DNA of 60,525 bases from Patescibacteria group bacterium (lineage in GTDB: Bacteria > Patescibacteriota > Minisyncoccia > UBA6257 > Colwellbacteraceae): NCBI GenBank assembly GCA_022705565.1, contig JAKJEF010000002.1:1-60525 (forward strand). Reading direction: 5' to 3'. A model generated the notes under the pieces. It had not been told where the DNA came from. It did no database searches and worked only from the letters and a program-made list of their open reading frames with translations. Below, piece after piece: positions 1-33,056 of the stretch. A program made the position numbers and the translations under genes. Positions within the stretch are counted from its first letter, which is position 1. Each line of letters opens with the position of its first letter.

Positions 1-111
1 TCGGCTTTCTTCCCGCCCGCAGGAGGGGTCTGGGGAGGAATGCGGGCGGGTTTTTGAACCTTTCCTTTTTCGCTTCCGAATTTCGTATTTTGCAAAGCAA
101 AATGCGCCACC
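1..111. repeat. Left copy of the inverted repeat (may be truncated by the window edge)
   Basis: The reverse complement of 1..111 aligns with 3713..3826 in identical blocks of 8, 35, 17 and 24 nt. It has a 10-bp GC stem (12..21 with 41..50) followed by TTTTT, and a 7-bp hairpin at 87..103. Confidence 0.85.
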
Positions 112-209
112 AAAAGAGATGTTGCCCTTGACCCACCCAACCCATTCGCGGGCAACGCTAAGGAACTCCCTAAAGATTCATTTACAATTTTATAAAAATT
201 AGTTATCAT

Positions 210-255
210 TATAGTATCAAGAAAGAAACCTTTATATTATATTCTATATACTATA
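210..255 (+). promoter_or_regulatory. Possible operator/promoter of the RM operon: inverted repeat TATAGTAT-N30-ATACTATA overlapping a TATAAT at 252..257
   Basis: 8-bp inverted repeat at 210..217 and 248..255, with a TATAAT hexamer 21 nt upstream of the HTH start. The background is AT-rich, so chance matches are likely. Confidence 0.2.
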
Positions 256-277
256 ATGTTATACAATTAGAAAAGAT

Positions 278-481
278 ATGTCAAATAATAAAATTGCTGA
301 AAACATTAAGAAACTGCGGGCTAAAAAGGGGCTATCTCTCGAAAAGATTGCCCGCCTTGCCGATTTATCGCTAAACACCATTGTTAAGGTTGAAAATGGC
401 GTAAATACAAACCCGACTATTGAAACATTAACCAAAATCGCCAAGGCGCTTGAGGTTGGTGTTGATGATTTAATAAAGTAG
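278..481 (+). CDS. XRE-family helix-turn-helix regulator, controller (C)-protein-like
   Basis: 67 aa. The pattern LRAKKGLSLEKIARLADLSLNTIVKVENG is typical of XRE HTH proteins. The gene ends 4 nt before the RM gene. Confidence 0.85.
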   Translation: MSNNKIAENIKKLRAKKGLSLEKIARLADLSLNTIVKVENGVNTNPTIETLTKIAKALEVGVDDLIK

Positions 482-485
482 AAAT

Positions 486-3077
486 ATGACTAAAGAAGAA
501 GCCAAACAACAAATTCAAAAACTCGTTGAGAAATATCAAAGAGTTTTATCAGAGGGGAAAATAAAATCCTACAATGAAGCTCAAAGCAGAAATGAGTTTA
601 TTGAGCCTCTTTTTGAATTTCTCGGTTGGGATATGAGAAATCTAACGACTGACAACGAAGTTACCACCGAAGAAAATGTTTCAGGCGGTAGAGTTGATTT
701 GGCTTTTCGTTTTGGCAACATACCAGTTTTCTTTTTAGAAGCAAAGGCGATGAAAGTTGATTTGGACGAATGGAAATGGGCGGAACAAGCAATAAATTAT
801 AGCTGGAACAAAAATGTTACTTGGGCGGTTTTAACAGATTTTGAAAGTATTAAAATTTTTAATGCCGAAATTCCGCCAAAAAGTATTTCGCAAAATCTTT
901 TTATTGAGCTTAATTGCCGAGATTTTATAAACCGCTTTGACCAGCTTTGGCTTTTATCAAAAGAAAGTTTTGAGCAAAAGCTTTTAGACAAAGAGGCTCA
1001 AAAGTGGGGCAAGCTCACACAAAGAAAACAAGTTGGCGAAAAACTTTTTGAAGATTTGATGTCTTGGCGTATTTCGCTCACAAATGATTTCAAAAAGCAG
1101 AATAATTTGACCGATGAAGAATTAGACGAAGGAGTGCAAAGAATTCTTGATCGTCTTATTTTTATTCGCACCGCCGAAGATAGAAAAATAGAACCCAATA
1201 TTTTAATTGGAATTTTACGAGGTGGAAAATCCGACCAATACAAACAGTTAGTAAAAGTTTTTCGTGATTTTGATGACGGATTTAATTCAAAACTTTTCGC
1301 ACCCCACTATTGCGAAGAGTGGAAAGTGAGTGATAAAACAGTTGGCGAAGTTATAAAAGGGTTGTATGAAACAAAAGACGGCTATCGCTATGATTTTTCT
1401 GTAATTTCCGCCGATGTTTTGGGCGGAATTTATGAGCAGTATTTAAGTTTTGTTCAGGTTCGCAAAGGCGAAGACAAAACAAAATCAAAAAGAAAATCTC
1501 AAGGAATATATTACACGCCAAAATATATCGTTGAATTTATCGTAAAAGAAACTTTGGGCGAGGTTTTGAAAAAGACGAAACCAAAAGAATTAGCAAAAAT
1601 TAAAGTTCTTGATCCTGCTTGCGGTTCAGGCTCTTTCTTAAATATTGCTTACGATAAAATTTTAGAAACTTTGACAAAGCAAAATCCTCAAACTTCGCTT
1701 TTCGCCAAATTTGATATTTTGAAAGAAAATATTTTTGGCGTTGACCTTGACGCACAAGCTGTGGAAATCGCCCAATTAAATCTTTTACTGAAAGTCTTGT
1801 CTCAAAAAACAAAATTGCCTACACTTCTGCATAATTTAACCTCTGGCAATTCACTCGTTTCAGGCGAAACCGAAAATTTGGAAAAATATTTTGGTTCTGA
1901 CTATCGCGAGCAAAAACCTTTTAATTTTGAAAACAAATTTAAGGAAGTTTTTGATCAAGGTGGTTTTGACGTGATTATTGGAAACCCGCCTTATGGTGCC
2001 GCATTATCAAAAACACAACAAGAATATTTCAAAAATATTTATGATATTGGCTCAACAGATACGGCGATTTTGTTTATAAAAAAATCGTTGGAATTATTAA
2101 AAGACGGAGGAAAATTAGGATTCATTGTCCCCAAGGCTCTATGTTTTGCTTCAAATTGGAATAAAATCAGAGAATATATTTGGGATAATACGGAAACAAT
2201 CATTGATTGTGGAAAAGCGTGGAAAGAAGTTAAACTTGAACAGGTTGTCTTTATTTTGAAAAAAGGCAAAAAATCAGCAAGTTATACTTCGGGAAAATTT
2301 GAAAACGGTAATCTTAAAATTTTAGGGAAAATCAACAAAAAAGACGCGGAAGATTTTGGATTTTTCTTGAATAGTATTTTCGAATCGGAATTATCTATTG
2401 CTAAAAAAATAAAATCAAATTCAATATTCTTGAATGATGTAAGCTCCAATCAGCGAGGAGCGATTTTGCAAAAATTCATTTCAGAAACAGGAGATAAAGA
2501 AGTCATTGGCGGAGCGCAAACTCAAAAATTCGGAATCATCGGAATAAAAGGAAAAATTGATAAAAATAAAATTGATAATGATCAAGCTTTTATAAAAAAT
2601 AATTCGGTTCTTATCCAAAATATCGTAGCTCATATTGAAAATCCGATTGACCATATAAAAATAATCGCTTGTGTTCCAGAAAGAAATGATTACATTATCG
2701 TTGACACAATAAACCAAATTTCTCTTAATGGCGATATTGATAAAAATGTGATCTGGTATTTGCTTAATTCCAAGTTGATGAGTTGGTATGCCTATCGCTT
2801 TATTTTTGGTAAAGCAATTCGCACCATGCATTTTGATAACTCAATAACAGCTCGTCTGCCAATTCCAAAAGATATTAAAAGTTTGCAAAATGAATTAGCA
2901 AAGCCGATCAATGAATTTCTAAAACTTGGCAAAGAATTTCAAAATACGCCAGCAAAAACCGATAAATCAAATAATTTGAAAATTGAAATGGAAAAAATGG
3001 AAAAGGAAATTGATGGGGTAATTTATAAATCTTATGGACTTACAATTGATGAAATCGAAATAATTGAAAAAATATGA
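486..3077 (+). CDS. Type IIG restriction enzyme / N6-adenine DNA methyltransferase (single-chain REase-MTase-TRD)
   Basis: 863 aa. N-terminal PD-(D/E)xK-like segment GGRVDLAF..FFLEAK, SAM motif I VLDPACGSGSFL, motif IV IIGNPPYG, and a long C-terminal region consistent with a target-recognition domain. Confidence 0.85.
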   Translation: MTKEEAKQQIQKLVEKYQRVLSEGKIKSYNEAQSRNEFIEPLFEFLGWDMRNLTTDNEVTTEENVSGGRVDLAFRFGNIPVFFLEAKAMKVDLDEWKWAEQAINYSWNKNVTWAVLTDFESIKIFNAEIPPKSISQNLFIELNCRDFINRFDQLWLLSKESFEQKLLDKEAQKWGKLTQRKQVGEKLFEDLMSWRISLTNDFKKQNNLTDEELDEGVQRILDRLIFIRTAEDRKIEPNILIGILRGGKSDQYKQLVKVFRDFDDGFNSKLFAPHYCEEWKVSDKTVGEVIKGLYETKDGYRYDFSVISADVLGGIYEQYLSFVQVRKGEDKTKSKRKSQGIYYTPKYIVEFIVKETLGEVLKKTKPKELAKIKVLDPACGSGSFLNIAYDKILETLTKQNPQTSLFAKFDILKENIFGVDLDAQAVEIAQLNLLLKVLSQKTKLPTLLHNLTSGNSLVSGETENLEKYFGSDYREQKPFNFENKFKEVFDQGGFDVIIGNPPYGAALSKTQQEYFKNIYDIGSTDTAILFIKKSLELLKDGGKLGFIVPKALCFASNWNKIREYIWDNTETIIDCGKAWKEVKLEQVVFILKKGKKSASYTSGKFENGNLKILGKINKKDAEDFGFFLNSIFESELSIAKKIKSNSIFLNDVSSNQRGAILQKFISETGDKEVIGGAQTQKFGIIGIKGKIDKNKIDNDQAFIKNNSVLIQNIVAHIENPIDHIKIIACVPERNDYIIVDTINQISLNGDIDKNVIWYLLNSKLMSWYAYRFIFGKAIRTMHFDNSITARLPIPKDIKSLQNELAKPINEFLKLGKEFQNTPAKTDKSNNLKIEMEKMEKEIDGVIYKSYGLTIDEIEIIEKI

Positions 3078-3589
3078 GTAGCGAAAATTTAGATTTAATT
3101 TTTCAAGAAGTAAAAGATCGATTAAAAGATCAGCTTCTTACAGCGGATCAATTAGCAACAAAGTTAAATTTTCTTTTGGGCTTTAATACTATTGTGATAG
3201 CTGCAATATTTCCAGGGTTGTTTGACAAAGTTCAAATAGACAAATTGGATATTCATCCGATTATTATTTTTGTCATTGCTTTTTTCCTGTTATCTATTTA
3301 CTTTGATTTAAAAGGATTAAAAATCCAAAAATATAGAAGAGATCCAGACCCCGAACAACTTTATAAAAAATATATAAATTCTGAGGCAGATGATACAAAA
3401 AAAGTTCTTATTTCTAATTATATTGCATCGTTTAAAGAAAACCTTTGTAAATTATCACCTGTTAGAAAATGTTTTCGTGCTTCGGTTATATTATCATCAA
3501 TAGCACTAATGCTAATATTTATATTTTTTGCTAAAGATAGTATACTTACAATATGGCAAATATTAACAACAACAATATGTCAAAAATAG
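3074..3589 (+). CDS. Hypothetical 3-TM membrane protein, translationally coupled to the RM gene
   Basis: 171 aa. Its ATG overlaps the RM stop (ATGA). Hydrophobic segments lie at about residues 33-50, 62-78 and 137-153. I recognise no family with certainty. Confidence 0.6.
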   Translation: MSSENLDLIFQEVKDRLKDQLLTADQLATKLNFLLGFNTIVIAAIFPGLFDKVQIDKLDIHPIIIFVIAFFLLSIYFDLKGLKIQKYRRDPDPEQLYKKYINSEADDTKKVLISNYIASFKENLCKLSPVRKCFRASVILSSIALMLIFIFFAKDSILTIWQILTTTICQK

Positions 3590-3711
3590 ATGATGACGAG
3601 AAGAAGCCCGTAACTCCCGCAGTAGAACCTGATACGGATTTGCAAAGTTACGAAGAAAAAGGATTTACCCCAGAAAAGAAAGACGACGGTAACTCCGATA
3701 ATAAAAAGTAA
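3577..3711 (+). CDS. Small acidic/lysine-rich ORF (44 codons), below the ORF-track cutoff
   Basis: My translation is MSKIDDDEKKPVTPAVEPDTDLQSYEEKGFTPEKKDDGNSDNKK. It overlaps the preceding ORF by 13 nt and its stop lies 2 nt before the right repeat. Confidence 0.25.
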   Translation: MSKIDDDEKKPVTPAVEPDTDLQSYEEKGFTPEKKDDGNSDNKK

Positions 3712-3712
3712 A

Positions 3713-3826
3713 GGTGGCGCGCCAGTTTTCAACTGGCACGAAATTCGGAAGCGAAAAAGGAAAGGTTCAAAATCCCGCCCGCATTCCTCCTCGAGACCTC
3801 GCTCCTGCGGGCGGGAAGAAAGCCGA
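3713..3826. repeat. Right copy of the inverted repeat
   Basis: See 1..111. It has a hairpin gccagtt-ttc-aactggc at 3721..3737 and a GC stem (3774..3783 with 3806..3815). Confidence 0.85.
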
Positions 3827-3988
3827 GGCGAGGCAATTCTATTTCCCCAGAAAAATAGTTTGCCCCGCCGAGTCCAAATTAGTTTTCGGGATTTTGCTCA
3901 AAAAATATTCGAACTTCGTCCAAAAAACACCGCCACAATGATTAAAGGCCCTGGTGCTCGATAAAACCCGCCTGAACCGCGAAACAAA

Positions 3989-5074
3989 ATGACCGACGAA
4001 ACAACCAAAATCAAACTTGAAGACCTTGGCTACGATGAATTTTTCGATTCGAAATACAGGTCTTCGGGACTCGAAGGCTTATCGATCGGCCGAGTCGTTG
4101 CCGAACACAAAGAAGCTTACAGGGTGAAAAGCCCGAATGGCGAGTATCTGGCCAAGATTACAGGGAAACAGATATTTAAAGCCGTGAAAAGAGCGGACTA
4201 TCCCGCTGTCGGCGACTGGGTGGCGATTTCCGAATTGGACGGGAAAAAGGCGGTCATCCGTCATATTTTGCCGAGAAAAACCATACTCAAGAAAAAGTAC
4301 AGCGACAAACAGGACGCGCAGGTTATCGCTGCGAATATCGACACGGCCTTTATCGTGGAAGCGATGGACCGGGATTATAATCTCAACCGCTTGGAAAGAT
4401 ATCTGGTTTTAACGAACGAAGCCGGCATCGAACCGGTTATCGTGTTGAATAAAACCGATTTGATTCCGGAAATCGAACTGGACCAAAGAATAAAAGAAAT
4501 CAAAAACAGATTCGGCGAAATCGACGTTCTCCGGACGAGCGCCGTTGAGAACCGCGGGCTCGACGAGCTCACGAATCGCATCTCCAAAGGGAAAACATAT
4601 TGCTTCCTCGGATCATCGGGAGTCGGAAAATCTTCTTTGATAAACAAATTACTGAAGAAAAATGCCATCGAAACAAGGGAAATAAGCGGATCCACCGGCA
4701 AAGGCAGACACACGACTACGACGAGAGAAATGTATTTTTTGGAAAGCGGCGGGATCGTGATCGACAATCCGGGCACGAGAGAGGTCGGGATAACGGAAGC
4801 AGGCACCGGCATCGAACATGTATTCGACGAAATAATCTCCTTGTCCCAAAAATGTAAATACGTCGATTGCGCGCATGTCCGCGAACCGGGATGCGCTGTC
4901 CTCCAAGCCCTTCGGGAAGGAAAACTGGACAAAGCCAAATATGAAAACTACATCAAGCTGAGAAAAGAAAACGAATTCTACGAAATGACCGACGCGGATA
5001 AGAAAAAGAAAGAGCGCCGGTTCGGGAAATTCCTGAAAAAAGCGATAGACCAGCTGAAAGAACTCGAGTCTTAA
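3989..5074 (+). CDS. rsgA: Ribosome small-subunit-dependent GTPase A
   Basis: Circularly permuted GTPase motifs VLNKTDL, GSSGVGKSSLIN and GRHTTT, plus a C-terminal Zn knuckle CKYVDCAHVREPGCAV. Confidence 0.9.
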   Translation: MTDETTKIKLEDLGYDEFFDSKYRSSGLEGLSIGRVVAEHKEAYRVKSPNGEYLAKITGKQIFKAVKRADYPAVGDWVAISELDGKKAVIRHILPRKTILKKKYSDKQDAQVIAANIDTAFIVEAMDRDYNLNRLERYLVLTNEAGIEPVIVLNKTDLIPEIELDQRIKEIKNRFGEIDVLRTSAVENRGLDELTNRISKGKTYCFLGSSGVGKSSLINKLLKKNAIETREISGSTGKGRHTTTTREMYFLESGGIVIDNPGTREVGITEAGTGIEHVFDEIISLSQKCKYVDCAHVREPGCAVLQALREGKLDKAKYENYIKLRKENEFYEMTDADKKKKERRFGKFLKKAIDQLKELES

Positions 5075-5079
5075 AAAAA

Positions 5080-5970
5080 TCAAAGGCTCATCTCCCGCAG
5101 TCTTTGGATTCTTTCTTCGATCGGAGGATGGGTGGAAAAAAGATTCGATACCATTTCTTTCGATTTAAGAGGGTTGACTATCCAAAGATGGGCCGTGGCC
5201 GAACCAGCCGATCGAAGCGGGGTTCGATCGTTCGAGATTTTTTGGAGGGCGGAGGCCAAACCTTCGGGATAACGCGTCAAAAGTGCGGATGAAGCATCGG
5301 CCAGAAATTCCCTTTTCCGGGAAATGGCGAGTTGGATCAGGTTGACGGCGATCGGCGCGAGTATGGCAAAAATAAGTCCTACCAAATACAGAACTCCCCG
5401 GAGCTCCCGATCGTCGTCGCTCCTCCGTGATCTTTGGGGCAGACGCATGAAAATGTCCGCGAGTATGGCGACAAATCCGACAAGCACGGCGGCCGTGGTC
5501 GCGATCAAAGTGTCGCGGTTCTCTATGTGGCTCAACTCGTGGCCCAAAACCCCTTCCAATTCCTGTCTGTCCAATTTTTGAAGCAAGCCGGTGGTGACGG
5601 CGATCGCCGAATGGTCCGGGCTCCGGCCGGTCGCGAAAGCGTTGGGGCTCGGATCGTCCACGATGTATATTTCCGGCTGGGCCGCGCCGGCGGCGATAGC
5701 CAAATTTTCCACCAGACGATGGAGTTCGGGGTTGTCTCGCCGCGCGACCGGTTTAGCGCCAGCAAGTCTGAGGGCGATATTGTCGGAGAAAAGAAAACTC
5801 CCGGCGCTCATGAAGACGCTGAAAACGATCGCTCCGAGCAGTATGGCCGGATTGTCGTAAAAATATCCGAATCCCCAGCCGAGACCGATGACCACAGCAA
5901 TGAAAACCGTGAAAAGCATCCACGTTCTTTTCACGTTCGCCTCTTTTTCCGTATAAATGTTTCTGGCCAT
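5080..5970 (-). CDS. htpX: Zinc metalloprotease HtpX (M48 family)
   Basis: 296 aa with N-terminal TM helices and the HEXXH motif HELSHIENRD. Confidence 0.9.
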   Translation of the reverse strand: MARNIYTEKEANVKRTWMLFTVFIAVVIGLGWGFGYFYDNPAILLGAIVFSVFMSAGSFLFSDNIALRLAGAKPVARRDNPELHRLVENLAIAAGAAQPEIYIVDDPSPNAFATGRSPDHSAIAVTTGLLQKLDRQELEGVLGHELSHIENRDTLIATTAAVLVGFVAILADIFMRLPQRSRRSDDDRELRGVLYLVGLIFAILAPIAVNLIQLAISRKREFLADASSALLTRYPEGLASALQKISNDRTPLRSAGSATAHLWIVNPLKSKEMVSNLFSTHPPIEERIQRLREMSL

Positions 5971-6023
5971 TGTATTCGTTAAATCCGCGGATGGTAAAAA
6001 AGCGCCTTCCGTTTTAAATAAAG

Positions 6024-6569
6024 TTAAAACTGGACTTTAACCGGTTCTTTTTCTCCGGCCTCGGTTTCGAAGAACGGCTCCGCTTTGAATCCGAAAACTC
6101 CGGCGATCAGATTGGTCGGAAACCTCTGAACTCTGATATTCATTTCCCTGACGTTGCTGTTGTAGAATCGACGGGCCGCCTGGATTTTGTTTTCGGTGTC
6201 GGCGAGCTCGCGCTGAAGCTCCACGAAATTGGTGTTGGCTTTAAGTTCGGGATAGTTCTCGGAAACCGCGAAAAGGGTTTTCAAGGTCCCGCTCAAGGCG
6301 CTTTCGGCCTTATCCCTTTCCAAGGGATTTCCCTTGCTTTGGGCGACGCTCGCCCTCGCCTCGGTTACCTTTTCCAAAACATTGGCTTCGTGCGACATAT
6401 AGCCTTTAACCGTTTCCACCAGATTGGGGATCAGATCAAAACGTCTTTTTAATTGGACATCGATGTCGGACAAAGCCTCCTTGACCCTGGTTTTCAGGGT
6501 CACCAGGCTGTTGTAAGAACCGACCAACCAGAGAAAGATTACCGCGATTACACCTAATAAAAGATACAT
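6024..6569 (-). CDS. lemA: LemA family protein
   Basis: 181 aa with an N-terminal TM helix and a typical LemA sequence (NSLVTLKTRVKEALSDIDVQLKRRFDLIPNLVETVKGY). Confidence 0.85.
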   Translation of the reverse strand: MYLLLGVIAVIFLWLVGSYNSLVTLKTRVKEALSDIDVQLKRRFDLIPNLVETVKGYMSHEANVLEKVTEARASVAQSKGNPLERDKAESALSGTLKTLFAVSENYPELKANTNFVELQRELADTENKIQAARRFYNSNVREMNIRVQRFPTNLIAGVFGFKAEPFFETEAGEKEPVKVQF

Positions 6570-6623
6570 ATTGATTGCTTTATTTGTTTTTAACGACTGT
6601 TTTGATTATAACACGAAGGCTAA

Positions 6624-6646
6624 AACCGCGCTTTTTGGGCGCGGTT
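6624..6646 (-). terminator. Stem-loop downstream of groEL
   Basis: 8-bp stem aaccgcgc/gcgcggtt with a 7-nt loop. The minus strand has only a short T-run after it. Confidence 0.4.
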
Positions 6647-6656
6647 AAAAGGCAAA

Positions 6657-8276
6657 CTAGTATTCCGGCATTTCCGGATGGTTGTGTTCTTCTTTTTTCG
6701 GAATGTCGGTGATGGCCGAACCAATGGTGAGATAATTGCTCGCCACGGAAACGGCGTTCACGAAGGCGGTTTTCGTCACTTTGAGTGGATCAATAATCCC
6801 TTTTTCCTTGAGATCGCAGAATTCGTTCGTCAAAGCGTTGAATCCCCACCATTTCTTGCCTTCGGCTTCTTTTTTTAATTGCGGGACGATCTCGTCCGGC
6901 TTTTCTCCGCTGTTTAGGACAATGGCGTTTATCGGCGCTTGAAGGGCTTTGGAGATCACCTTGGCGGCCGCGGCCTCAACCGCTCCGCCCGAAATGGATA
7001 TCTTCCCCTCGACATTGAAAAGCGCCATGCCGCCTCCGGGAATAATACCTTCTTCCATGGCCGCCTTGGTGGCGGCAACGGCGTCTTCCACCCTTTGCTT
7101 CAATTCTTTCTGGCTCGATTCCGTGGGCGCTCCGACTTTAATGACCGCCACGCCGCCGGAAAGCTTGCCCAAACGCTCTTCCAGTTTTTCTTTGTCGTAA
7201 TCAGAATCGGTTTTCTGGATTTGCGCCTTGAGCTGGCTGATACGGGAATCGATGGCTTTCTTGTCTCCGGCTCCGCCGACGATCGTCGTATTGTCTTTGG
7301 TCGACACCACGCGATGGGCCCGTCCCAAAGCGGTCACATCCACTCCCTCGATCTTTCTTCCGAGCTCTTCGGAGATAAACTCCGCTCCGGTAACGGTGGC
7401 GATATCCTGGAGCATTTCTTTTCTCCTGTCGCCGAATCCCGGCGCCTTCACCGCCAAGACGTTAAAGATCCCTCTCAATTTATTGACCACGAGCGTGGCC
7501 AAAGCTTCGCCGTCCACGTCGTCGGCGACGATCACTAATTCCTTTTTGCCGACTTTGATCAGTTTTTCCAAAAGCGGCAAAAGATCGTTGATGGCCGAAA
7601 TCTTCTGATCGGTGACAAGGATATAGGGGTCTTCGAGTACCGCCTCCATTCTTTCCGGATTGGAAATCATGTACTGCGAGATATATCCTTTATCGAACTG
7701 CATTCCCTCGACGATCTCGTAGGAATTGCTCACCGTATTCGAATCCTCTATGGTGACGACGCCTTCCTTGCCGATTTTCTTCATCACTTCGGCGATCAAC
7801 TTTCCGATTTCATTATTTTTCGCCGACAGCGTGGCCACTTCTTCCACTTTCTTGTCGTCGTCGATCAATTCTTTCTGATCTTCCAGAGCCTTGATCACCG
7901 CATCGCTTCCTTTTTTCAAAGCTTCGGAAAGCTGGATGACATTGAATCCTTTGTCGCTTATCTGACGCTCGCCTTCCTCGATCATGGCGTGGGCCAAGAC
8001 CACGGCCGTGGTCGTGCCGTCCCCGACATTATCGTTCGTCTTGTCGGCCGCCTGTTTCAGCAAATCGGCTCCGAGATTCTCGTATTTGTCTTCGAGCTCG
8101 ATTTCCTTGGCGACGGTGACGCCGTCAAACGTCACCTGCGGGGCACCGTATCCTTTTTCGATGACCATCGCCCGTCCGCGCGGACCCAAAGTCATGGTGA
8201 CGGCTCGCGCCAATTTGTCTATTCCTTTTTTCAAGGATTTTCTCGCTTCTTCGTCGAATAAAATTTGTTTAGCCAT
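6657..8276 (-). CDS. groL: Chaperonin GroEL
   Basis: 539 aa that reads as GroEL along its full length (AVKAPGFGDRRKEMLQDIA and more). Confidence 0.97.
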   Translation of the reverse strand: MAKQILFDEEARKSLKKGIDKLARAVTMTLGPRGRAMVIEKGYGAPQVTFDGVTVAKEIELEDKYENLGADLLKQAADKTNDNVGDGTTTAVVLAHAMIEEGERQISDKGFNVIQLSEALKKGSDAVIKALEDQKELIDDDKKVEEVATLSAKNNEIGKLIAEVMKKIGKEGVVTIEDSNTVSNSYEIVEGMQFDKGYISQYMISNPERMEAVLEDPYILVTDQKISAINDLLPLLEKLIKVGKKELVIVADDVDGEALATLVVNKLRGIFNVLAVKAPGFGDRRKEMLQDIATVTGAEFISEELGRKIEGVDVTALGRAHRVVSTKDNTTIVGGAGDKKAIDSRISQLKAQIQKTDSDYDKEKLEERLGKLSGGVAVIKVGAPTESSQKELKQRVEDAVAATKAAMEEGIIPGGGMALFNVEGKISISGGAVEAAAAKVISKALQAPINAIVLNSGEKPDEIVPQLKKEAEGKKWWGFNALTNEFCDLKEKGIIDPLKVTKTAFVNAVSVASNYLTIGSAITDIPKKEEHNHPEMPEY

Positions 8277-8306
8277 GGTGTTGATTTTTTTTAAACGCGA
8301 TCCGAC

Positions 8307-8597
8307 CTATTCCACGATCGCCAGAACGTCGTCTTCGTCTCCGACCAAATATTTTTTCCCGTCGATTTCGATTTCGTCGGGACCGTATTTTTTGAATAGA
8401 ACCGTGTCGCCGACCTTGACCGACATCGGCGTCCGTTCGCCTTTTTCGTTCAATTTTCCCGATCCCACGGCGATAACTTTGCCTTTGACCGGTTTTTCTT
8501 TGTCGGCCGTATCCGGGATGATGATGCCCGACTCCGTGGCCTTTTCTTCTTCGACCGGCTCAAGGAAAATATGGTTTGATAGAGGTTTTATGTTCAT
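8307..8597 (-). CDS. groS: Co-chaperonin GroES
   Basis: 96 aa (IKPLSNHIFLEPVEEE..GKVIAVGSG), located upstream of groEL. Confidence 0.95.
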   Translation of the reverse strand: MNIKPLSNHIFLEPVEEEKATESGIIIPDTADKEKPVKGKVIAVGSGKLNEKGERTPMSVKVGDTVLFKKYGPDEIEIDGKKYLVGDEDDVLAIVE

Positions 8598-8607
8598 TTC
8601 GACTTAT

Positions 8608-8638
8608 ATTATATCATATCTTGCCGCGGTTTTGTCAA
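8608..8638 (-). promoter_or_regulatory. Putative groES promoter: TTGACA-N19-TGATATAAT (extended -10)
   Basis: On the minus strand: TTGACA at 8638..8633, TG-n-TATAAT at 8616..8608, and only 10 nt between the -10 and the ATG at 8597. Confidence 0.5.
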
Positions 8639-8683
8639 GCCGTTTTAAGACGACCTCCGATTGCTTGACGGCTTTCCCGAAGG

Positions 8684-9715
8684 TCATTCCTCGGCTTCGG
8701 GCTTTTCCAAGACCATCGGCTCGATATTTGCCGTCGAACCGCTGATCCGCAAAACGTCTTTGTCTATTTTCCCGAATTCCTTGTAGGCCTGGTTGTACAT
8801 TCCGACCGAGGTCCCGAGATGGCTTCCCAGCTTTTTCATGTATCCTTCGTAGCTCGCCAGATGCTTGCCGAGCTCCTCCACCCGTTTTTTGATCTCCTTG
8901 GCCGATTCCTCTATCTGCAGAGCTTTGAGACCCTGGAGCACGGTTTGGAGATAGGCGAGAAAGCTAGTCGGAGAAACGATGATCACGTGTTTTTCCTTGA
9001 AAGCGTATTCGATCAAATCCCTCGTGTTCGTTTTAACCGCACCCACTTTATTCACCAGGAGATCGTAATAAATCGCCTCCGAAGGAATGAACATGAAAGC
9101 GAAATCCATGGTGTTCTCCTCCGGACGCACGTATTTCGAGGTTTCGTCGATGCGGTTTTTCAGATCGTCCCTGAATTGTTTTTCCAACTCCTCCCTTCTC
9201 TGGGAATCGTTTTCTGACAATATCCTTTCGTAGTTCTCCAAGGAGAACTTGGAATCCACCGGAATGATCTTGTCCTTCACGAAAACCGCGGCGTCCACCA
9301 TTTCGCCGTCTTTGAACTTGTACTGCATTTCGTAGGAATTCGGCGGCAGGACGTTCTTAAGGGTCTCTTCCAAAAAATACTCTCCGAGCACTCCCCTTTG
9401 CTTCGGGTTTTTGAGGATATCCTGGAGATCTTTCAGCTGATCGGCCAAACTCACCACCTGTTTCTGGCCTTCGCCCACCTTGGTCAGCTCCTCGGTGATC
9501 TCTTTGATCATCCGGCTGCTTTCGCCGAACTGCGACTGCATCACCTTTGGCAGTTCTCCGAGTTTCGCGTCCAAAACCCGGCTCATTTCGTTGATCTGGT
9601 TTTGAAGCAATATCAAAGAATTGTCGGCCGGTTTCGACTTTCTCAAGAGCAAAAACAAAGCAACGCCCAAAAGCGACAAGAACAAAATTATGACCGCCCA
9701 GAAAACTATTTCCAT
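8684..9715 (-). CDS. rmuC: DNA recombination protein RmuC
   Basis: N-terminal TM helix, coiled-coil region and RmuC C-terminal region. The ORF opens at a TTG (9781), but I prefer the ATG at 9715 (MEIVFWAVII..). The start is uncertain. Confidence 0.8.
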   Translation of the reverse strand: MEIVFWAVIILFLSLLGVALFLLLRKSKPADNSLILLQNQINEMSRVLDAKLGELPKVMQSQFGESSRMIKEITEELTKVGEGQKQVVSLADQLKDLQDILKNPKQRGVLGEYFLEETLKNVLPPNSYEMQYKFKDGEMVDAAVFVKDKIIPVDSKFSLENYERILSENDSQRREELEKQFRDDLKNRIDETSKYVRPEENTMDFAFMFIPSEAIYYDLLVNKVGAVKTNTRDLIEYAFKEKHVIIVSPTSFLAYLQTVLQGLKALQIEESAKEIKKRVEELGKHLASYEGYMKKLGSHLGTSVGMYNQAYKEFGKIDKDVLRISGSTANIEPMVLEKPEAEE

Positions 9716-9761
9716 GGGTTCTATTTTAGACCAAAAAAAGCCGGCTCGCCACCCGATGGTT

Positions 9762-11096
9762 TCAGGGGTTTTCGGCGGCAAAAGGGTTGATCAGGCAAAA
9801 ATCCGCGTCGCTCTGATCCGTTGCCGATTCCTTGAACCGGCAATCGCTAAGGCAATTTTCGTCGCAGCAGCCAAAATAATCGTAGGCGTAGCTCAGAGCG
9901 ATTCTGTAATCCGATCCGACCGGGCGCTCCGGTCGCAGGATCACGGTTTCCGTGCCGTCGTTCTCGGTGATAATCGAACTCATGACCGAGTTTCCTTTGA
10001 GTAAACTGATGCGGATGGATTTATCGTCGGAAACGAGATTGGTTCCGCTGCTTCGCCAGTTTATGGTCAGCCGGTCTCCGGGAGCGAAGCTTTCCCTGCC
10101 GTTCGGATAATCGACTTTCACCCAGGCTCTTTTGTCGGCCGCGGTCTCCGGTCTTTTCTCTCCGCCCAAGCAAACGGCGTTCCTTATTGGAGCCGGATCC
10201 GCTCTTTTTTCTCCATTCACATCGGCTTCCGCCAGAGCCGCGATTCCGGCCCTCGAGATTAGGCCGTCAATGACAAAATCGGAAAGATCGAAATTTAATC
10301 CAAGCCCGGATGCGGAAACCATTCCGCGCAGTTCTTCCGAACCCAAAGTCTTATCGGTTAAATAGATTCCCTTGGAAAGAAAAAAACTTTCGACATTTTT
10401 CTTATAGTCGTCGGAAAGTGTTTGGCTTATCAGGTTTTTGTCTTTGGTCAGCCGCATAATAATCGCTCCGGCTTCGCGCATGTCTACCGGAGTTTCCAGG
10501 ATGACGGAAGCTGTTTCTTCGAGTTCTCCGGTTAGGCGGATCTCCGGGTCGGGAAAATTATCGACGGATATTTCCGCTCCGTAGATATAAGGATCGATCC
10601 AGGCTATAAACCAACGGCCGTCGATTTTCTCCAAATAAAAAACATTCCGGTCGATTTTGATTTCCGGCAACAATCCCCAAATATTGCTTTTGGTCTCGAC
10701 CGCCGCGAAAACAACCGCCTTGTCCGAAGAATGATCCAGGATTTTGACGTTCAAAATATCGATTATTTCGAAATGCCGCTGTTTCGCGTTCAAGCTGTCC
10801 TTGATAAAACCATTCGCTTCCGCGATCAAAAGCTCTATTCCATTGTCGACGGCGTAAGCCTCTATGAAATCCCGCCAATTTTTGTTGATGTTGATGCTCC
10901 TCGCGTAATCGGCGTAATAATCCGATACAAACCTATCGATGGCGGCCCTATCGTATTTGGGAAGATAGCCGAACAATCCGAAATCCCAGATCACCCAAAC
11001 GATTCCGGCGAAAAAGACGAATAAAATCAGAATCAAGAATATTCTCCGTTTTAGCGGAGATTCCGAAGATGCCGAACGTCCCGTCTTGCGGCTCAT
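9762..11096 (-). CDS. Membrane-anchored hypothetical protein, last gene of the minor-pilin operon
   Basis: ORF 9762..11171. The ATG at 11096 (MSRKTGRS..) lies 1 nt after the upstream stop. It has one N-terminal TM helix, and its C-terminal segment VDYPNGRESFAPGDRLTINWRSSG resembles a segment of the protein at 31037..32725. Confidence 0.6.
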   Translation of the reverse strand: MSRKTGRSASSESPLKRRIFLILILFVFFAGIVWVIWDFGLFGYLPKYDRAAIDRFVSDYYADYARSININKNWRDFIEAYAVDNGIELLIAEANGFIKDSLNAKQRHFEIIDILNVKILDHSSDKAVVFAAVETKSNIWGLLPEIKIDRNVFYLEKIDGRWFIAWIDPYIYGAEISVDNFPDPEIRLTGELEETASVILETPVDMREAGAIIMRLTKDKNLISQTLSDDYKKNVESFFLSKGIYLTDKTLGSEELRGMVSASGLGLNFDLSDFVIDGLISRAGIAALAEADVNGEKRADPAPIRNAVCLGGEKRPETAADKRAWVKVDYPNGRESFAPGDRLTINWRSSGTNLVSDDKSIRISLLKGNSVMSSIITENDGTETVILRPERPVGSDYRIALSYAYDYFGCCDENCLSDCRFKESATDQSDADFCLINPFAAENP

Positions 11097-11097
11097 C

Positions 11098-11550
11098 TCA
11101 TCTTGTTTCTTCGGTAAAGGTAATTTCCAAGGTGCGCACGATCTGACCGGTTTCGTCCTTGCCGACGGCATACCATCTTTCGATTAAAGGATCTTCCGGC
11201 CGTCGGGCAGGCCTACAATCCTCCGGAGGATGCCTGATATCTGAACATTTTATATAAACCTGGAAGCTTTGTCCGTCCAGGCTTCCATCTCTGTTGTTCG
11301 CTTCCGGAAAACAAGAACAAAGATCTCCGTCTTCCGAAGCGCAGCAGCCGAACCGGCCCATCAATATCCTTTCGATGCCGGCGTCGGCCGAAAAAAGGGC
11401 TTGGGTCGACTGGCTGATGCTCGATGCTTGCCGCAGTTCGTAAACCACAAGCAAATTGGCCAAAGCCGTCGCTCCGAGAATGACGATCGACATGGTGAAA
11501 ACCATGAAAAGCATGGTTTGTCCTTTGGGTATTTTTCTCCGGATATCCAT
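11098..11550 (-). CDS. PilX-N-terminal-like pilus assembly protein
   Basis: 150 aa. The N-terminus KGQTMLFMVFTMSIVILGATALANLLV is hydrophobic and PilX_N-like but lacks Glu at +5. It sits in the pilin operon. Confidence 0.5.
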   Translation of the reverse strand: MDIRRKIPKGQTMLFMVFTMSIVILGATALANLLVVYELRQASSISQSTQALFSADAGIERILMGRFGCCASEDGDLCSCFPEANNRDGSLDGQSFQVYIKCSDIRHPPEDCRPARRPEDPLIERWYAVGKDETGQIVRTLEITFTEETR

Positions 11551-11551
11551 A

Positions 11552-12076
11552 TTATGATTCGGGTGGCCGATAATAGAACAACCTTTCGCTGACCGTTGTT
11601 TGGAAAGTGAGCGGACCCTTGAACAAAGAGCTTTCTACCTGAATTTTGATCGTTACCCTCGGCGGATAATAAGATAGCTGCGGCTGGATAATATCGAACT
11701 TCAAATCCGTCACTTGAACGTCGTCGGCGGTCAAACGTTTCGGAAAATCGCTGCCGGTTTTTTTGGTGATGTAATCTCCGTCCGGCGCTTTGGCGTAAGT
11801 CACTTCCTGTTGCTGATAATTGGTGAATCTCAATGAACTGTCCCCCTCAAGCGTGCTGTAATTCGTACCCGTTCTTATTTCTCGCGCCATTTGCTCTATC
11901 ACTAAAGCGAGATTGTCGAGGATGGCCGTCTGATTGGCCACGTTCCGTTCCGCTTTCAAGGAATTGGTGAAAATGGAGAGGATCATGAAAACGACTCCCA
12001 CGAAAATTCCCAAAGTGACGGTGACTTCCACCAGGGTGAATCCGGATTTTTTGGAAAAATTCGTCATATTTGTCAT
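11552..12076 (-). CDS. Prepilin-type N-terminal cleavage/methylation domain protein (minor pilin)
   Basis: The signal reads SKKSG-FTLVEVTVTLGIFVGVVF. Confidence 0.8.
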   Translation of the reverse strand: MTNMTNFSKKSGFTLVEVTVTLGIFVGVVFMILSIFTNSLKAERNVANQTAILDNLALVIEQMAREIRTGTNYSTLEGDSSLRFTNYQQQEVTYAKAPDGDYITKKTGSDFPKRLTADDVQVTDLKFDIIQPQLSYYPPRVTIKIQVESSLFKGPLTFQTTVSERLFYYRPPES

Positions 12077-12594
12077 TCCGCGCGCCAGCCGACGAAGTCC
12101 GTGGCTATTGTCGACGAACTAAGCGTGGTCGGATGCCTCGGATCGCGCCAAGCAACGGTGGCCGTCGCCCTGATTTTATAACTGGATATAGGCGTGATGA
12201 CGATCCACCTTTTGAAAATCGTCGGCTCGCCCGAGTCATAACTGTATAAGTTGTTATTATCGATATTCAAGAACCTCGTTTTCTCGAAAGCTCTTTCATC
12301 ATCGCAAGGCTTTAAATCGTTTCCGATATCTGCCGCGTCATACTGTACTTCAAAGCATTTGGATTCGGAAAAATCGTGATTCCAAGCGGCCCCTCTGACG
12401 ACATTGCTGTCCAGAATGTTTTTCGTCACCTCTAGGCCTTCGGCCGCCAGATTGGCGGCGATGAATTGGTCGGTGACGACCGAACTTGTCCGAAGGGCGC
12501 TTACCGCCAAGCTAAAAATACCGAGAACGCTCGAAACGATGATCCCCATGGCGATCATACCCTCGACGATGAATTGCCCTTTGGCGCTTCTCAT
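12073..12594 (-). CDS. Pilin-like protein (atypical prepilin signal)
   Basis: The N-terminus reads MRSAKG-QFIVEGMIAMGIIVSSVLGIF with Glu at +5. It overlaps the next gene by 4 nt. Confidence 0.6.
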   Translation of the reverse strand: MRSAKGQFIVEGMIAMGIIVSSVLGIFSLAVSALRTSSVVTDQFIAANLAAEGLEVTKNILDSNVVRGAAWNHDFSESKCFEVQYDAADIGNDLKPCDDERAFEKTRFLNIDNNNLYSYDSGEPTIFKRWIVITPISSYKIRATATVAWRDPRHPTTLSSSTIATDFVGWRAE

Positions 12595-12614
12595 ATTGTT
12601 TGATTATAGCCGGT

Positions 12615-13998: not shown

Positions 13999-14005
13999 TA
14001 TCGGA

Positions 14006-14467: not shown

Positions 14468-14535
14468 GTTTTTAAATTGATTTGCGACTTTTATTTTTAT
14501 CGTTGACCCGAGTTTATGTATTTATTCTACCCGAA

Positions 14536-28472: not shown

Positions 28473-28477
28473 GTTTT

Positions 28478-28846: not shown

Positions 28847-28850
28847 GTTT

Positions 28851-29231: not shown

Positions 29232-29401
29232 GATTTCATTATAACAAATCCGCCCTCGAATCTCCGATATTTCTCAAACATATAATTTGAAACTCCTTAA
29301 CAGGAGCTTGTTTTTTTGAAAATACCTAAATCACCGAGGGTTCGTCGAGCGCCCTCCCTTTTTTTCCGCCCGCCTCGCCTTAAACTGGAACGGGTACGAT
29401 T

Positions 29402-29557: not shown

Positions 29558-29597
29558 ATTTATATCTTAACAATTTTATTTTTGGCGGCAAATTCTT

Positions 29598-30115: not shown

Positions 30116-30134
30116 TTTCTTATCTTTTTCCAAC

Positions 30135-31023: not shown

Positions 31024-31036
31024 TTTGATTCTCGAC

Positions 31037-33047: not shown

Positions 33048-33056
33048 ATAATTATC

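Follow-up and report, generated by a model that had tools for sequence, protein, structure and literature searches.

Among the closest described systems are the SCC/SCCmec islands with their Ccr recombinases. Like the locus described here, they are small islands with a large serine recombinase, they occupy the 3' end of one conserved housekeeping gene, and they carry highly variable cargo, which may include restriction-modification (RM) systems but no transfer genes. They differ in their target, rlmH, and in their CcrAB pair, whereas tRNA-Ser and one recombinase are found here. In addition, our elements have a cargo bay with near-identical inverted arms of ~220 nt, end-specific hairpins and a resident XRE regulator, their recombinase gene has inverted repeats of its own, and their hosts are ultra-small CPR bacteria. 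The minimal islands known as phage defence elements reside at tRNA/tmRNA genes, encode tyrosine integrases and are bounded by direct repeats of 14 bp (PMC12595487). They share with our elements the small format of integrase plus defence cargo, the lack of transfer genes, the position at the 3' end of a small-RNA gene and the many cargo variants on a common frame, but here a large serine recombinase and long inverted repeats replace the tyrosine integrase and the short direct repeats.

Inverted repeats also delimit the G segment of Mu (Gin) and the Hin and Cin segments, which lie next to a serine recombinase gene, and the hsdS "epigenetic invertons" are invertible segments linked to RM (PMC7672463). 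In these systems inversion re-wires a promoter or gene fusions. In our elements it would re-wire nothing, the repeats are ten times as long, and the recombinase is of the integrase type; inversion is apparently rare. C-protein-controlled type II RM operons likewise encode a small HTH_3 protein immediately upstream of the nuclease gene, with a match to PADLOC Control_protein; in our family, however, one regulator and promoter precede many unrelated first genes, a few of them non-defence. Integrons resemble the locus in having a constant platform, a resident promoter and interchangeable promoter-less cargo in one direction, but IntI tyrosine recombinase, attI and attC are lacking here, and the bay holds whole operons between long inverted arms. 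We found no published description of an arm-bracketed cargo-bay element at tRNA-Ser in the literature.

The window, that is, the whole stretch of DNA analysed, is the complete contig JAKJEF010000002.1 of 60.5 kb. Its position 1 is therefore an assembly break, which lies inside the left repeat copy. Sliding composition gave a GC content of 0.27-0.36 over positions 200-3600, compared to 0.45-0.59 further right, and this trough is the sole one of its kind in the window. The AT-rich island described in the first-pass annotation was thus borne out, as was its gene content: besides an HTH_3 protein and the type IIG enzyme of 863 aa, the island encodes a protein of 171 aa that has three hydrophobic segments, and an ORF of 44 or 52 codons (Table 1). 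Gene calls and domain searches also agreed with the claim that no recombinase is encoded within the bracketed interval.

Table 1. Features at the left end of the window (window positions unless a contig is named).
Feature	Position	Strand	Remarks
Left arm, inner half	1-111	.	truncated by contig end; complete arm = L003 122-341; arm-profile nhmmer E = 7e-36
Left arm, GC hairpin	12-50		followed by TTTTT (51-55); terminator-like on + strand, toward cargo
Left arm, reverse complement of invariant block	52-86		
Left arm, L-type hairpin	84-106		
Left arm, GCGCCACC	104-111		
L-side leader	112-171	+	GC-rich, ~60 nt; stem GTTGCCC...GGGCAAC; 100% match to leader module
Promoter-like site TTTACA-17-TATCAT	181-209	+	L003 411-439
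XRE/HTH_3 regulator, 67 aa	278-481	+	resembles RM controller (C) protein
Type IIG restriction-methyltransferase, single chain, 863 aa	486-3077	+	cargo; PADLOC REase_MTase_IIG 2.3e-99
171-aa protein, three hydrophobic segments	3074-3589	+	cargo
Small acidic ORF	3553-3711	+	52 codons from ATG 3553; 44 codons from 3577 as called in JGI records
Right arm	3713-3934	.	222 nt; arm-profile nhmmer E = 2.5e-74
Right arm, GGTGGCGC	3713-3720		
Right arm, R-type hairpin	3718-3740		
Right arm, invariant block	3738-3772		
Right arm, GC hairpin	3774-3815		T-run after it on - strand, toward cargo
Right arm, GCCGAGGC	3822-3829		
Right arm, second GC hairpin	3827-3869		
Right arm, outer ~60 nt	to 3934		ends ...GTTCGAAC...CACCGCCA at 3934; resembles tRNA 3' end
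Host flank: 54-nt spacer and rsgA (3989-5074)	3935-5074	+	marks insertion point

A repeat search of the window returned the inverted pairs 34-86/3738-3790 (53 nt, 98%) and 1-25/3802-3826 (25 nt, 100%). The shared 35-mer and 24-mer each occur exactly twice in the 60.5 kb, with zero occurrences expected from 100 shuffles. A contig of the same strain from another sample, L003, extends 230 nt further left than the window and completes the left arm, which measures 220 nt (window -108 to 111), against 222 nt for the right one. The bracketing inverted repeats with their four identical blocks were as first annotated, but not their length of 111/114 nt; the suspicion that the unit extends past the visible 1-3826 proved correct. 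The two arm stretches that do not match have not simply diverged at random. The first is a 10-bp hairpin, which exists in two forms, one per end; the L-type and R-type hairpins differ in all seven upper stem pairs, with pairing preserved. The other is the loop of the GC hairpin. Rfam gave only chance-level matches in 1-4100, even at E <= 10, and ARAGORN called zero tRNAs in the arms. The arm hairpins were missed by a terminator scan whose maximum loop size is smaller than theirs, so that the insulating role proposed for them below is a prediction from sequence.

An exact arm 26-mer recovered 63 stretches in 56 species-representative genomes, mostly Patescibacteria, at about one pair per genome; since all arms studied were picked in this way, their apparent conservation is inflated. 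In all 14 cases with both ends on the same contig, and in the window as well, the ends formed an inverted pair 2-4.4 kb apart, and each of the 15 two-ended elements had one L-type and one R-type end. The repeat is thus neither private to this genome nor a generic REP element. One might still suspect a generic intergenic repeat, such as a REP/MITE pair or a composite transposon, or an assembly artefact at the contig end, given that the repeat reaches that end, that several contigs break inside it, and that the arms are pieced together from short hairpin modules, which can be gained or lost (an extra ~30-nt module in L051, L052 and L063; hairpin 2 missing in L010). We regard this explanation as hardly credible. 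Arm-profile searches found no further match in the 60.5-kb contig beyond the two copies, independently sampled contigs read through both arms (L003) or the right arm (L001, L005) with identical sequence, and the arms lack Rfam and tRNA matches. A composite transposon or MITE pair was rejected because the two flanks differ (host DNA on one side and IR2, a repeat of the recombinase module described below, on the other), because neither a target-site duplication nor a transposase accompanies the single pair per genome, and because no DDE transposase occurs in any cargo examined. A REP/BIME-like repeat was rejected on the basis of the copy number in the contig and the 1-2 matches per contig across the 56 genomes. 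The first-pass annotation had named a multi-copy unit without cargo as the outcome that would count against it; in fact, cargo was always present.

Homology to the other elements ends at window ~480-499 and restarts at ~3703-3712. On one side of this gap, the constant backbone comprises the arm, L-type hairpin, leader, promoter and a small XRE/C-like regulator, and on the other side the R-type hairpin and arm. The leader is conserved in most L ends, with GAGA in its place in five, and the promoter-like site, the top sigma-70-type match of the region, is kept in all elements with the same XRE type. The regulator matches HTH_3 (1.8e-15) and, not as its top match, PADLOC Control_protein (2.4e-10). 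Its gene and promoter share 90-95% nucleotide identity across elements with unrelated cargos, including non-RM cargo (L040, L043), and the gene typically ends 4 nt ahead of the first cargo ATG, the same gap that separates it from the RM gene here. Because one regulator and promoter are fused to so many unrelated first genes, they behave as part of the vehicle and not of a particular RM system, so that the acquired variable part is 486-3711. The AT-rich interval can therefore be equated with the cassette only in this part; judged by sequence comparison, leader (112-171), promoter and XRE gene (to about 485) belong to the conserved backbone.

The 863-aa cargo protein has the predicted parts of a type IIG enzyme: a PD-(D/E)XK-type nuclease, a gamma-class N6-adenine methyltransferase (NPPY) and a specificity region. 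The N-terminus contains an HSDR_N-like nuclease region with a D...EAK motif (Pfam HSDR_N_2, 1.4e-5), the Eco57I/N6_Mtase/MmeI_Mtase domain carries GNPPYG (Pfam Eco57I, 1.9e-31; N6_Mtase, 4e-26), and the C-terminus forms the specificity region. The corresponding enzyme of L042 is 93% identical as far as window 1994 and divergent beyond. Family searches gave no match for the 171-aa protein with its three hydrophobic segments. It recurs 3' of a related IIG enzyme in L080, where it is kept together with the small acidic ORF, the last cargo gene, and the entire operon occurs without the scaffold. Other elements carry EcoRI, NgoPII, DpnII, type I/III/IV, Thoeris-TIR and other genes; altogether, ~50 cargo segments yielded 106 protein clusters, mostly of RM and defence families. 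Cargo genes are transcribed from L to R and have a GC content of 0.31-0.39, irrespective of that of the host (0.29-0.51). The core of the original interpretation, a horizontally acquired defence cassette whose inverted repeats belong to the vehicle, is thus upheld.

While no integrase or transposase lies inside the window, related elements have a large serine recombinase immediately beyond the L arm. In nine loci, the sequence past this arm runs into the gene for a protein of 500-535 aa that carries the domains Resolvase, Recombinase and Zn_ribbon_recom. The same three domains were recognised in the recombinases of L038 and L025. The best NCBIfam match is CcrB, with 93.8 bits versus a cut-off of 900. 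The recombinase module is bounded by its own inverted repeats of 127-134 nt (IR2), and the 3' end of the recombinase gene adjoins the 3' end of tRNA-Ser in all nine loci. In diverged family members, only the outer ~50-60 nt of the arm are kept, beside IR2. L036 provides a complete map: the IR2 copies (134 nt) and the arms (193 nt) are each 100% identical, and the IR2 repeat extends into the last 6 nt of the tRNA. Its junctions read tRNA..CCGCCA/ATTTTCAC (IR2'), arm..CACCGCCA/ATTTTCAC (IR2) and arm..CACCGC/host, a sequence pattern consistent with hybrid attL/attR-type junctions that share halves with the donor site. The only direct repeat is CCGCCA, with one copy closing the tRNA and the other on the outer side of arm R.

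In the genome under study, the recombinase and tRNA-Ser would lie beyond every contig recovered, and four candidate recombinases belonged to other organisms; since the recombinase is off the contig, we infer its presence. The 230 nt gained from L003 include the leader and the inverted repeat of the recombinase module, the latter in the long IR2 form beside the L arm (L003 1-121). Where the sequence could be traced, this long form was followed by the recombinase in nine of nine loci. The element thus exceeds 1-3826 and is probably able to integrate autonomously, and the earlier proposal of possibly non-autonomous mobility is replaced accordingly.

In relatives, rsgA is located directly 3' of the tRNA-Ser gene. 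The closest relative, L076, whose RsgA is 82% identical and is followed by the same downstream gene, has the tRNA 3' end, 415 nt and then rsgA, with no arm detected by nhmmer at E <= 10. In L075, tRNA-Ser(tga) lies 152 nt upstream of rsgA, again without an element. The empty site sought by synteny thus exists, and not the alternative outcome of relatives with the same RM genes at this position. These sites, together with the tRNA-Ser at the recombinase end of all nine loci, point to tRNA-Ser as one specific, conserved target.

We consider it probable that window 1-3934 is the cargo-bay half of a ~6-kb integrative serine-recombinase element at the 3' end of tRNA-Ser, belonging to a Patescibacteria (CPR) family, and that in this genome the element separates tRNA-Ser from rsgA. 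The complete order would be tRNA-Ser (+) ..CCGCCA, IR2', large serine recombinase (-), IR2, arm L, then L hairpin, leader, promoter and XRE regulator, variable cargo, R hairpin, arm R ..CACCGCCA and rsgA, with recombinase and tRNA-Ser just past the contig end. The recombinase would integrate the element at sites in which an IR2 end is joined to a half like the 3' end of tRNA-Ser, supplied by the real tRNA or by the outermost ~50 nt of an arm, giving the junctions B-P', P-P' and P-B'. An intact second P-P'-like junction retained after integration is unusual for serine integrases, which counts against this reading, and no circular junction contig of an excised element was among the loci fetched. 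The stable inner arm hairpins, one of them GC-rich with a T-run only toward the cargo, may shield a self-regulated toxic cargo from outside transcription. The two arms and the XRE gene could serve as flanking homology or as sites for cargo exchange between elements.

Instead of one element there could be two: a separate non-autonomous arm-cargo-arm module, and an IS-like recombinase module within IR2 that is merely co-located, the arm ends being mimics of its tRNA-Ser target. The bay would then move or be exchanged in trans or by homologous recombination after natural transformation, and the cargo boundary within the conserved 3' end of the XRE gene is what homology-driven exchange predicts. 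The two modules can indeed exist apart: L079 has the recombinase module alone, without a cargo bay, between two convergent tRNA-Ser genes, element 1 of L074 lacks the R arm, and in L019, L024 and L055 the L arm adjoins non-tRNA DNA. Furthermore, an arm adjoins tRNA-Ser without a recombinase at five loci (L023, L028, L044, L051, L070), and many metagenome recombinase contigs comprise just ~2 kb. On the other hand, the modules are mostly adjacent and in fixed relative order where sequence exists (nine loci), and the recombinase-less forms resemble deletions of the module: L051 retains a fused IR2 palindrome, L044 a remnant of 21 nt, and in L070 the join falls at GCCGAGGC. Arm identity of at least 95% across CPR classes indicates that the arms travel with the element and are not resident chromosomal homology. 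We regard two independent elements as possible, although unlikely.

L and R arms are 100% identical in five of eight genomes, compared to a between-genome median of ~96 (identity x coverage), and private variants are common to both arms of one element. Even in L074, where the arm sequence has diverged, both arms still pair as a ~295-nt inverted repeat. Such identity would fit frequent exchange, and an invertible, phase-variable segment flipped by the adjacent serine recombinase to switch expression, as with Gin, Hin or Cin, would also explain why long inverted repeats flank the cassette with the recombinase gene just outside. The motif GCC[TC]GGC/GCC[GA]GGC is present in both arms and twice per IR2, and in L024 the R arm instead of the L arm faces the recombinase-side repeat, with remnants of the same state in L049 and L062. 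However, promoter, regulator and all cargo genes are internal and the arms are alike, so that inversion would alter no junction or expression signal, and the 500+ aa recombinase is of the integrase type and not a ~190-aa invertase. L001, L003 and L005, three independent assemblies of the strain across arm R, all match the window orientation (other orientation, 0 of 3), and flipped states, in about 1-3 of ~15 genomes, were seen between genomes only (L024). On the grounds of the single orientation and the internal promoter and genes, a Gin/Hin-type switch was rejected, and invertibility for phase variation appears very improbable. In the integrative element that we favour, gene conversion and occasional inversion may keep the arms identical.

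A further, rather speculative step, which we hold to be quite unlikely, is that the family gives CPR bacteria a platform dedicated to the exchange of defence-gene cassettes. The excised circle would be two-fold symmetric, its recombinase and cargo bay parted by two ~350-nt inverted repeats (arm plus IR2), and would thereby contain two inverted recombination sites, reminiscent of the yeast 2-micron plasmid. The heterospecific L and R hairpins at the bay edges would direct oriented cargo swaps; alternatively, the arms might enable the single-stranded DNA that these naturally competent cells import to fold on itself and so form a double-stranded substrate. If true, this would represent a new kind of cassette system, with a serine recombinase in place of the integron integrase, and would offer a ready-made integration tool for organisms that are nearly intractable genetically.

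A repeat search located the inverted repeat at the left end of the contig where the first-pass annotation had placed it, with 34-86 pairing with 3738-3790 (53 nt, 98% complementary) and 1-25 with 3802-3826 (25 nt, 100%). Its 35-nt and 24-nt blocks occur twice each in the 60.5-kb window, and no occurrence is expected in shuffled sequence. The AT-rich interval was confirmed, with a GC content of 0.27-0.36 at about 200-3600 versus 0.45-0.59 to the right; at 2-kb resolution, the island is the sole deep GC trough of the window. The ORFs listed by the first-pass annotation match those found here (see table). In the 863-aa translation, the motifs D..EAK and GNPPYG are visible. Domain and defence-profile searches returned no family match for the 171-aa and 52-aa products, and hmmscan did not recover a PF18967 tag that had been precomputed for two homologues of the former.

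Since the window is the entire 60,525-nt contig, position 1 is an assembly break. The suspicion that the unit exceeds the visible left edge was borne out by L003, a contig of the same strain from another sample, which runs 230 nt further left and in which the arm identity continues outward to ...CAAAAAACACCGCCA. The repeats do bracket the island as proposed, and the arms are 220 nt and 222 nt long instead of 111 and 114 nt. By exact-protein look-up, the strain was found in six further assemblies, and the majority of these break within the repeat. The inner stretch in which the two arms differ forms a 10-bp stem with a 3-nt loop, and its upper seven pairs all differ with pairing kept; the other differing stretch is the loop of a GC-rich hairpin. 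An ORF to the left of the arm in L003, considered as a "gene X," is not a gene and corresponds to the conserved leader and inverted repeat (IR2) of a recombinase module.

Arms were surveyed with an exact 26-mer from an invariant block against one genome per species (GTDB representatives). This search yielded 63 stretches in 56 genomes, a sample that overstates conservation, the true family being larger and more diverse (L073, L074, L077, and L078 are diverged members). The genomes are mostly Patescibacteria (CPR), namely Paceibacterota, Nomurabacteria, Saccharibacteria, Woesebacteria, Levybacteria, Shapirobacteria, Dojkabacteria (a closed genome), Komeilibacteria, and Moraniibacteriota. A few are labelled as DPANN archaea, Gammaproteobacteria, Bdellovibrionales, and others, which are automatic MAG labels to be read with caution. 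Element contigs including L027/L061, L037, L046, L016, and L024 bear labels such as Pacearchaeota, Altiarchaeales, Nanoarchaeota, Gammaproteobacteria, and Christensenella. The copy in L037 adjoins a run of N in its scaffold, and a bacterial RsgA homologue also bears the label "Pacearchaeota." The non-CPR labels may reflect mis-binned or mis-labelled CPR contigs instead of true cross-domain spread.

The arm copies form one inverted pair per genome, spaced by 2.0-4.4 kb, and no further copy of any arm module was found in the window. The generic, cargo-less REP-like element that the first-pass annotation had allowed for is not compatible with one pair per genome, and copy counts together with the profile search rule out a high-copy REP or MITE. 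An explanation of the repeats as REP or as an assembly artefact is poorly supported. Wherever both ends of an element lie on one contig, one is L-type and the other R-type (the both-ends set comprises the window, 9 pairs in a single locus, and 5 split across two loci). L-type ends carry the hairpin ATTTTGC-TTT-GCAAAAT, usually followed inward by a ~60-nt leader as in the window, and R-type ends carry the hairpin GCCAGTT-TTC-AACTGGC, preceded by variable sequence. When 41 distinct arms were aligned, the seven upper stem positions split 27 versus 14 between these two forms, with pairing kept in both. All arms end outward in ...CACCGC(CA), and the flanks beyond are unrelated. A small RNA or riboswitch had been suggested by the compensatory hairpin and by the GC-rich hairpin with its T-run. 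Searches of the arm with Rfam (gathering thresholds and E<=10) and ARAGORN found nothing, the apparent covariation is that of two fixed, end-specific hairpin forms, and the small-RNA idea was dropped as the primary reading. The 26-mer had no match in IMG/VR, and blastn of the arm had none in PLSDB or GenBank phages; on these searches, phage or plasmid carriage was rejected. Scanning metagenomes with a 22-mer from the outer arm, which varies between elements, returned only two contigs, both of the same strain.

The two arms of an element match perfectly over 191 nt in five of eight genomes and are 95-97% identical in the window strain, L042, and L043, while arms compared between genomes had a median score (identity x coverage) of about 96. 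Variants private to one element occur in both of its arms (CCAATCC in L024, TCTTGC in L036), which requires ongoing homogenisation by gene conversion. Although the arm sequence of L074 is strongly diverged from that of the window, its two copies remain an inverted repeat of ~295 nt (91-99%), indicating that the mirrored layout is maintained and not accidental. Read toward the cargo, each arm contains two GC-rich hairpins, the inner one followed by (T/A)TTTT, and the folds of both strands are more stable than those of shuffled sequences (z = -3.5 and -3.9). A simple terminator scan did not call these hairpins, whose loops exceed its 8-nt limit; the sequence reading and the fold results make them candidate terminators. 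The arms are also mosaics of small hairpin modules (L051, L052, L063, L010). An extra ~30-nt hairpin (CCTGTCCGCCGTAGCTTTAGCGGAGGCGGA) follows GCCCCGCCGA in L051, L052, and L063, and the L010 arm is without the 44-nt second hairpin, which direct GCCGAG repeats flank.

The recombinase-side repeat is faced by the R arm in L024, and remnants of the same state occur in L049 and L062. Thus, in a minority of genomes, the bay between the arms has been inverted or was inserted in the opposite orientation. An expression switch operating by inversion could draw on this state; all three assemblies of the window strain that cross arm R (L001, L003, and L005) have the window's orientation, and a switch is poorly supported.

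The leader is followed in every element by a promoter-like site and an XRE gene (64-72 aa), which belongs to one of a few related types. The window's type, promoter included, shows 90-95% DNA identity across elements and precedes unrelated first genes in L024, L040, L047, L055, L063, and L065. Homology to the window ends at 480-499 (XRE stop/RM start) and resumes at 3703-3712. These break points, together with the sharing of the XRE gene by unrelated cargos, define 486-3711 as the variable cargo. The first cargo ATG lies only 3-4 nt past the XRE stop in about half of the examined elements, whatever the gene, and the junction is most often TA(A/G)AAATATG. Cargo from about 50 elements fell into 106 protein clusters, 81 of them singletons. 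According to Pfam, it includes methylases (N6_N4, N6, D12, C5), nucleases (EcoRI with its methylase, NgoPII, TdeIII, DpnII, Tsp45I), type I HsdR/S, type III Res, GmrSD, AAA_15/AAA_21 ATPases, and ThsB-TIR; a few cargos are unrelated to defence (a Na/Ca exchanger with hemerythrin, an ABC transporter). Nearly all cargo genes run from L to R. The cargo GC content is 0.31-0.39 regardless of that of the host flank (0.29-0.51), which explains why the island is conspicuous in a 50%-GC host.

The window's operon, comprising the genes for the IIG enzyme and the 171-aa membrane protein and the small acidic ORF, recurs in locus L080 with 70-72% nucleotide identity. There it has neither arms nor an XRE gene, adjoins YafQ/ParE/PhdYeFM toxin-antitoxin genes, and contains an extra 110-aa ORF. 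Its occurrence without the scaffold indicates a natural operon that was captured, and the membrane protein and the small ORF look like true accessory parts of the RM family. The IIG gene of L042 shares 93% DNA identity with the window up to 1994 and is then unrelated except for a short C-terminal stretch, a pattern consistent with swapping of target-recognition (specificity) domains.

Coordinates of features in the window and in compared loci
Locus	Feature	Position	Remark
Window	Arm L	-108 to 111	negative positions from L003
Window	~60-nt leader	112-171	
Window	XRE regulator, 67 aa		HTH_3 family
Window	IIG enzyme, 863 aa	486-3077	Pfam-type matches Eco57I, N6_Mtase, MmeI_Mtase, HSDR_N_2; PADLOC REase_MTase_IIG 2.3e-99
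Window	171-aa protein	3074-3589	three hydrophobic segments
Window	Small acidic ORF	3553-3711	
Window	Arm R	3713-3934	
Window	Lower-GC genes	27237-29999	
Window	HTH_3-like frame, truncated	30000-30134	minus strand
Window	tRNA-Ser(cga)	30135-30224	
Window	Tandem paralogous genes	31013-35853	similar stretches 31013-31863 and 33885-34768
Window	99-nt repeat units	34816-35853	
L003	"Gene X" ORF	2-439	IR2 and leader
L003	Pilus/competence-like cluster	8914-15304	window about 8680-15070
L036	tRNA-Ser	539-628	
L036	IR2'	623-756	
L036	Recombinase	590-2125	minus strand
L036	IR2	2249-2382	
L036	Arm L	2379-2571	
L036	Bay	between arms	XRE, NgoPII, C5 methylase, ATPase
L036	Arm R	6635-6827	
L074	Two tandem elements	1-11600	
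L079	Recombinase module	5350-7269	
L080	Operon	1350-4826	

The host flank was examined through rsgA, whose homologues carry names such as Paceibacterota and Yanofskybacteria, which identifies the host as a CPR bacterium. The closest relative recovered, L076, has an RsgA with 82% identity and shares the M48 peptidase downstream of it. The L076 sequence opens with a plus-strand tRNA 3' end (..GGGTTCGAATCCCTGCCTCTCCGCCA), and 415 nt separate this end from rsgA; no RM genes are present, and nhmmer found no arm at E<=10. A decayed arm was considered for an 18/22 match around CACCGC.ACAA.GAT and rejected, as the local alignment falls within the shuffle range. We treat the L076 site as empty, with this local match at the arm/flank junction as a caveat. 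In L075 (71% identity), a tRNA-Ser(tga) lies 152 nt upstream of rsgA. The two arrangements indicate that tRNA-Ser followed by rsgA is ancestral and that the element was inserted between them, which defeats the alternative in the first-pass annotation that relatives carry the same RM genes at this site without repeats.

Elsewhere in the window, a truncated HTH_3-like frame (MRAKLGLTQDDLAKKADI...) lies right past the 3' end of a second tRNA-Ser gene (cga), and after it come lower-GC genes (0.42-0.46) for a cupredoxin, a glucose/sorbosone dehydrogenase, and DUF6789. This neighbourhood may be what is left of a further such element; neither an arm nor IR2 was detectable at the site. Further to the right, tandem paralogous genes about 2.9 kb apart share stretches of 75-79% identity, and four diverged copies of a 99-nt unit lie in the same interval. 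The interval probably encodes surface proteins with repeat domains. A type IV pilus/competence-like cluster follows rsgA, HtpX, LemA, and GroEL/ES in L003, with a PilD-like prepilin peptidase, N_methyl pseudopilins, and a T2SSF platform protein, and RmuC alongside; it bears on DNA uptake as a route of cassette exchange.

Nine loci showed a conserved ~280-nt leader beyond the L arm, the same sequence that makes up the 121 nt preceding the arm in L003. It is followed by a gene, directed away from the cargo, for a protein of 500-535 aa that contains Resolvase, Recombinase, and Zn_ribbon_recom domains. In 9 of 9 cases, the 3' end of this gene runs into a tRNA-Ser of varying anticodon, whose own 3' end faces the element. 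Among serine-recombinase islands, SCC elements are the closest analogue. The match to the CcrB model (93.8 bits) is far below the cut-off, as is that to XisF (85.2 bits). PDB matches cover the N-terminal domains only, and no integrase of the GenBank phages reaches 30% identity. In sequence, the clade is far from characterised integrases. More than 100 metagenome homologues (60-93% identity) were found, many on ~2-kb contigs. Four candidates for the window strain's own recombinase (P0031, P0016, P0033, and P0004) were rejected, all being in other samples or organisms; P0004 had been chosen for its C-terminus, which matches the peptide predicted from the L003 IR2 in 39 of 41 residues. As the strain has the long IR2 form and the gene comes next in all nine followable loci, the recombinase is very probably present in the window genome.

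The recombinase gene is itself enclosed by the inverted repeats IR2 and IR2' (134 nt, 100% in L036; 127 nt, 100% and 134 nt, 99% in L074). Of these, one copy forms the leader upstream of the gene; the last ~45 residues of the recombinase are encoded by the other. The junctions of L036 (marked by slashes) read tRNA..CTCTCCGCCA/ATTTTCAC.., arm..CACCGCCA/ATTTTCAC.., and arm..CACCGC/host, the pattern that would be expected for B-P', P-P', and P-B'. Within the diverged members L073, L074, L077, and L078, the arm profile detected only the outer ~50-60 nt, next to IR2, which makes this part the best candidate for a recombinase half-site. The same part resembles a tRNA 3' end (GTTCGAAC....CCGCCA).

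Several loci depart from this layout. The two IR2 copies of L051 are fused to one perfect palindrome beside tRNA-Ser, without a recombinase; in L044, a 21-nt palindrome alone remains between arm and tRNA-Ser; and in L070, the arm is joined at its GCCGAGGC motif to the IR2' tail. All three look like deletion derivatives. L079 contains the recombinase module within its IR2 repeats, alone between convergent tRNA-Ser genes (gct, gga) and without a cargo bay; a LAGLIDADG ORF lies just upstream, between two tRNA-Ser genes. L074 (GCA_040772285.1, a 1.06-Mb contig) contains two tandem elements at two tRNA-Ser genes. In one of them, which is without an R arm, an HTH gene accompanies methylase, DpnII-like, and methylase genes; the other combines diverged arms of ~295 nt with a cargo unrelated to defence (GreA/Rnk-like, MFS, Na/Ca exchanger). 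Another 7-10 kb on, there are conjugation-like genes (TraC-like, TraG P-loop, PrgI). From these variants, each module end always borders on a real tRNA-Ser 3' end or on a tRNA-like outer arm end, and module and bay can separate. In the main rival reading, the two are separate elements, co-located since the arms mimic the recombinase target. Such an origin could accommodate the solitary module of L079, and the module adjoins the L arm in nine loci; we consider it rather unlikely. The reading we favour, and hold to be somewhat probable, is a serine-recombinase integrative island at the tRNA-Ser 3' end with a mirrored-arm cargo bay. The recombinase would target the tRNA-Ser 3' end, with the outer arm ends serving as its half-sites. 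The inner arm hairpins would insulate a self-regulated, toxic cargo from outside transcription, and the near-identical arms and the XRE gene would provide the flanks for cargo swapping.

A full-text literature search found no description of the element. Small islands combining an integrase with defence genes at tRNA/tmRNA genes are a known general class (PMC12595487). New here are the bay, whose long inverted arms are homogenised and whose hairpins are end-specific; its resident regulator; the nesting of inverted repeats around the recombinase; and the spread over CPR classes. CPR bacteria have tiny genomes, are mostly without CRISPR, and rely on restriction-modification; to our knowledge, the acquisition and turnover of their RM systems are poorly known. 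Long inverted repeats break metagenome assemblies, many contigs ending in them and the recombinase often being left as a ~2-kb orphan, so that such elements are systematically under-seen in MAGs. The locus points to one shared vehicle for CPR defence systems, with a resident regulator and more than 100 cargo protein families. The arms are at least 95% identical in genomes labelled as different CPR classes, which, together with the varied cargo, argues for recent defence-gene flow between very distant CPR lineages. If its sites are as we infer, the recombinase could serve as a means of inserting DNA into CPR genomes.
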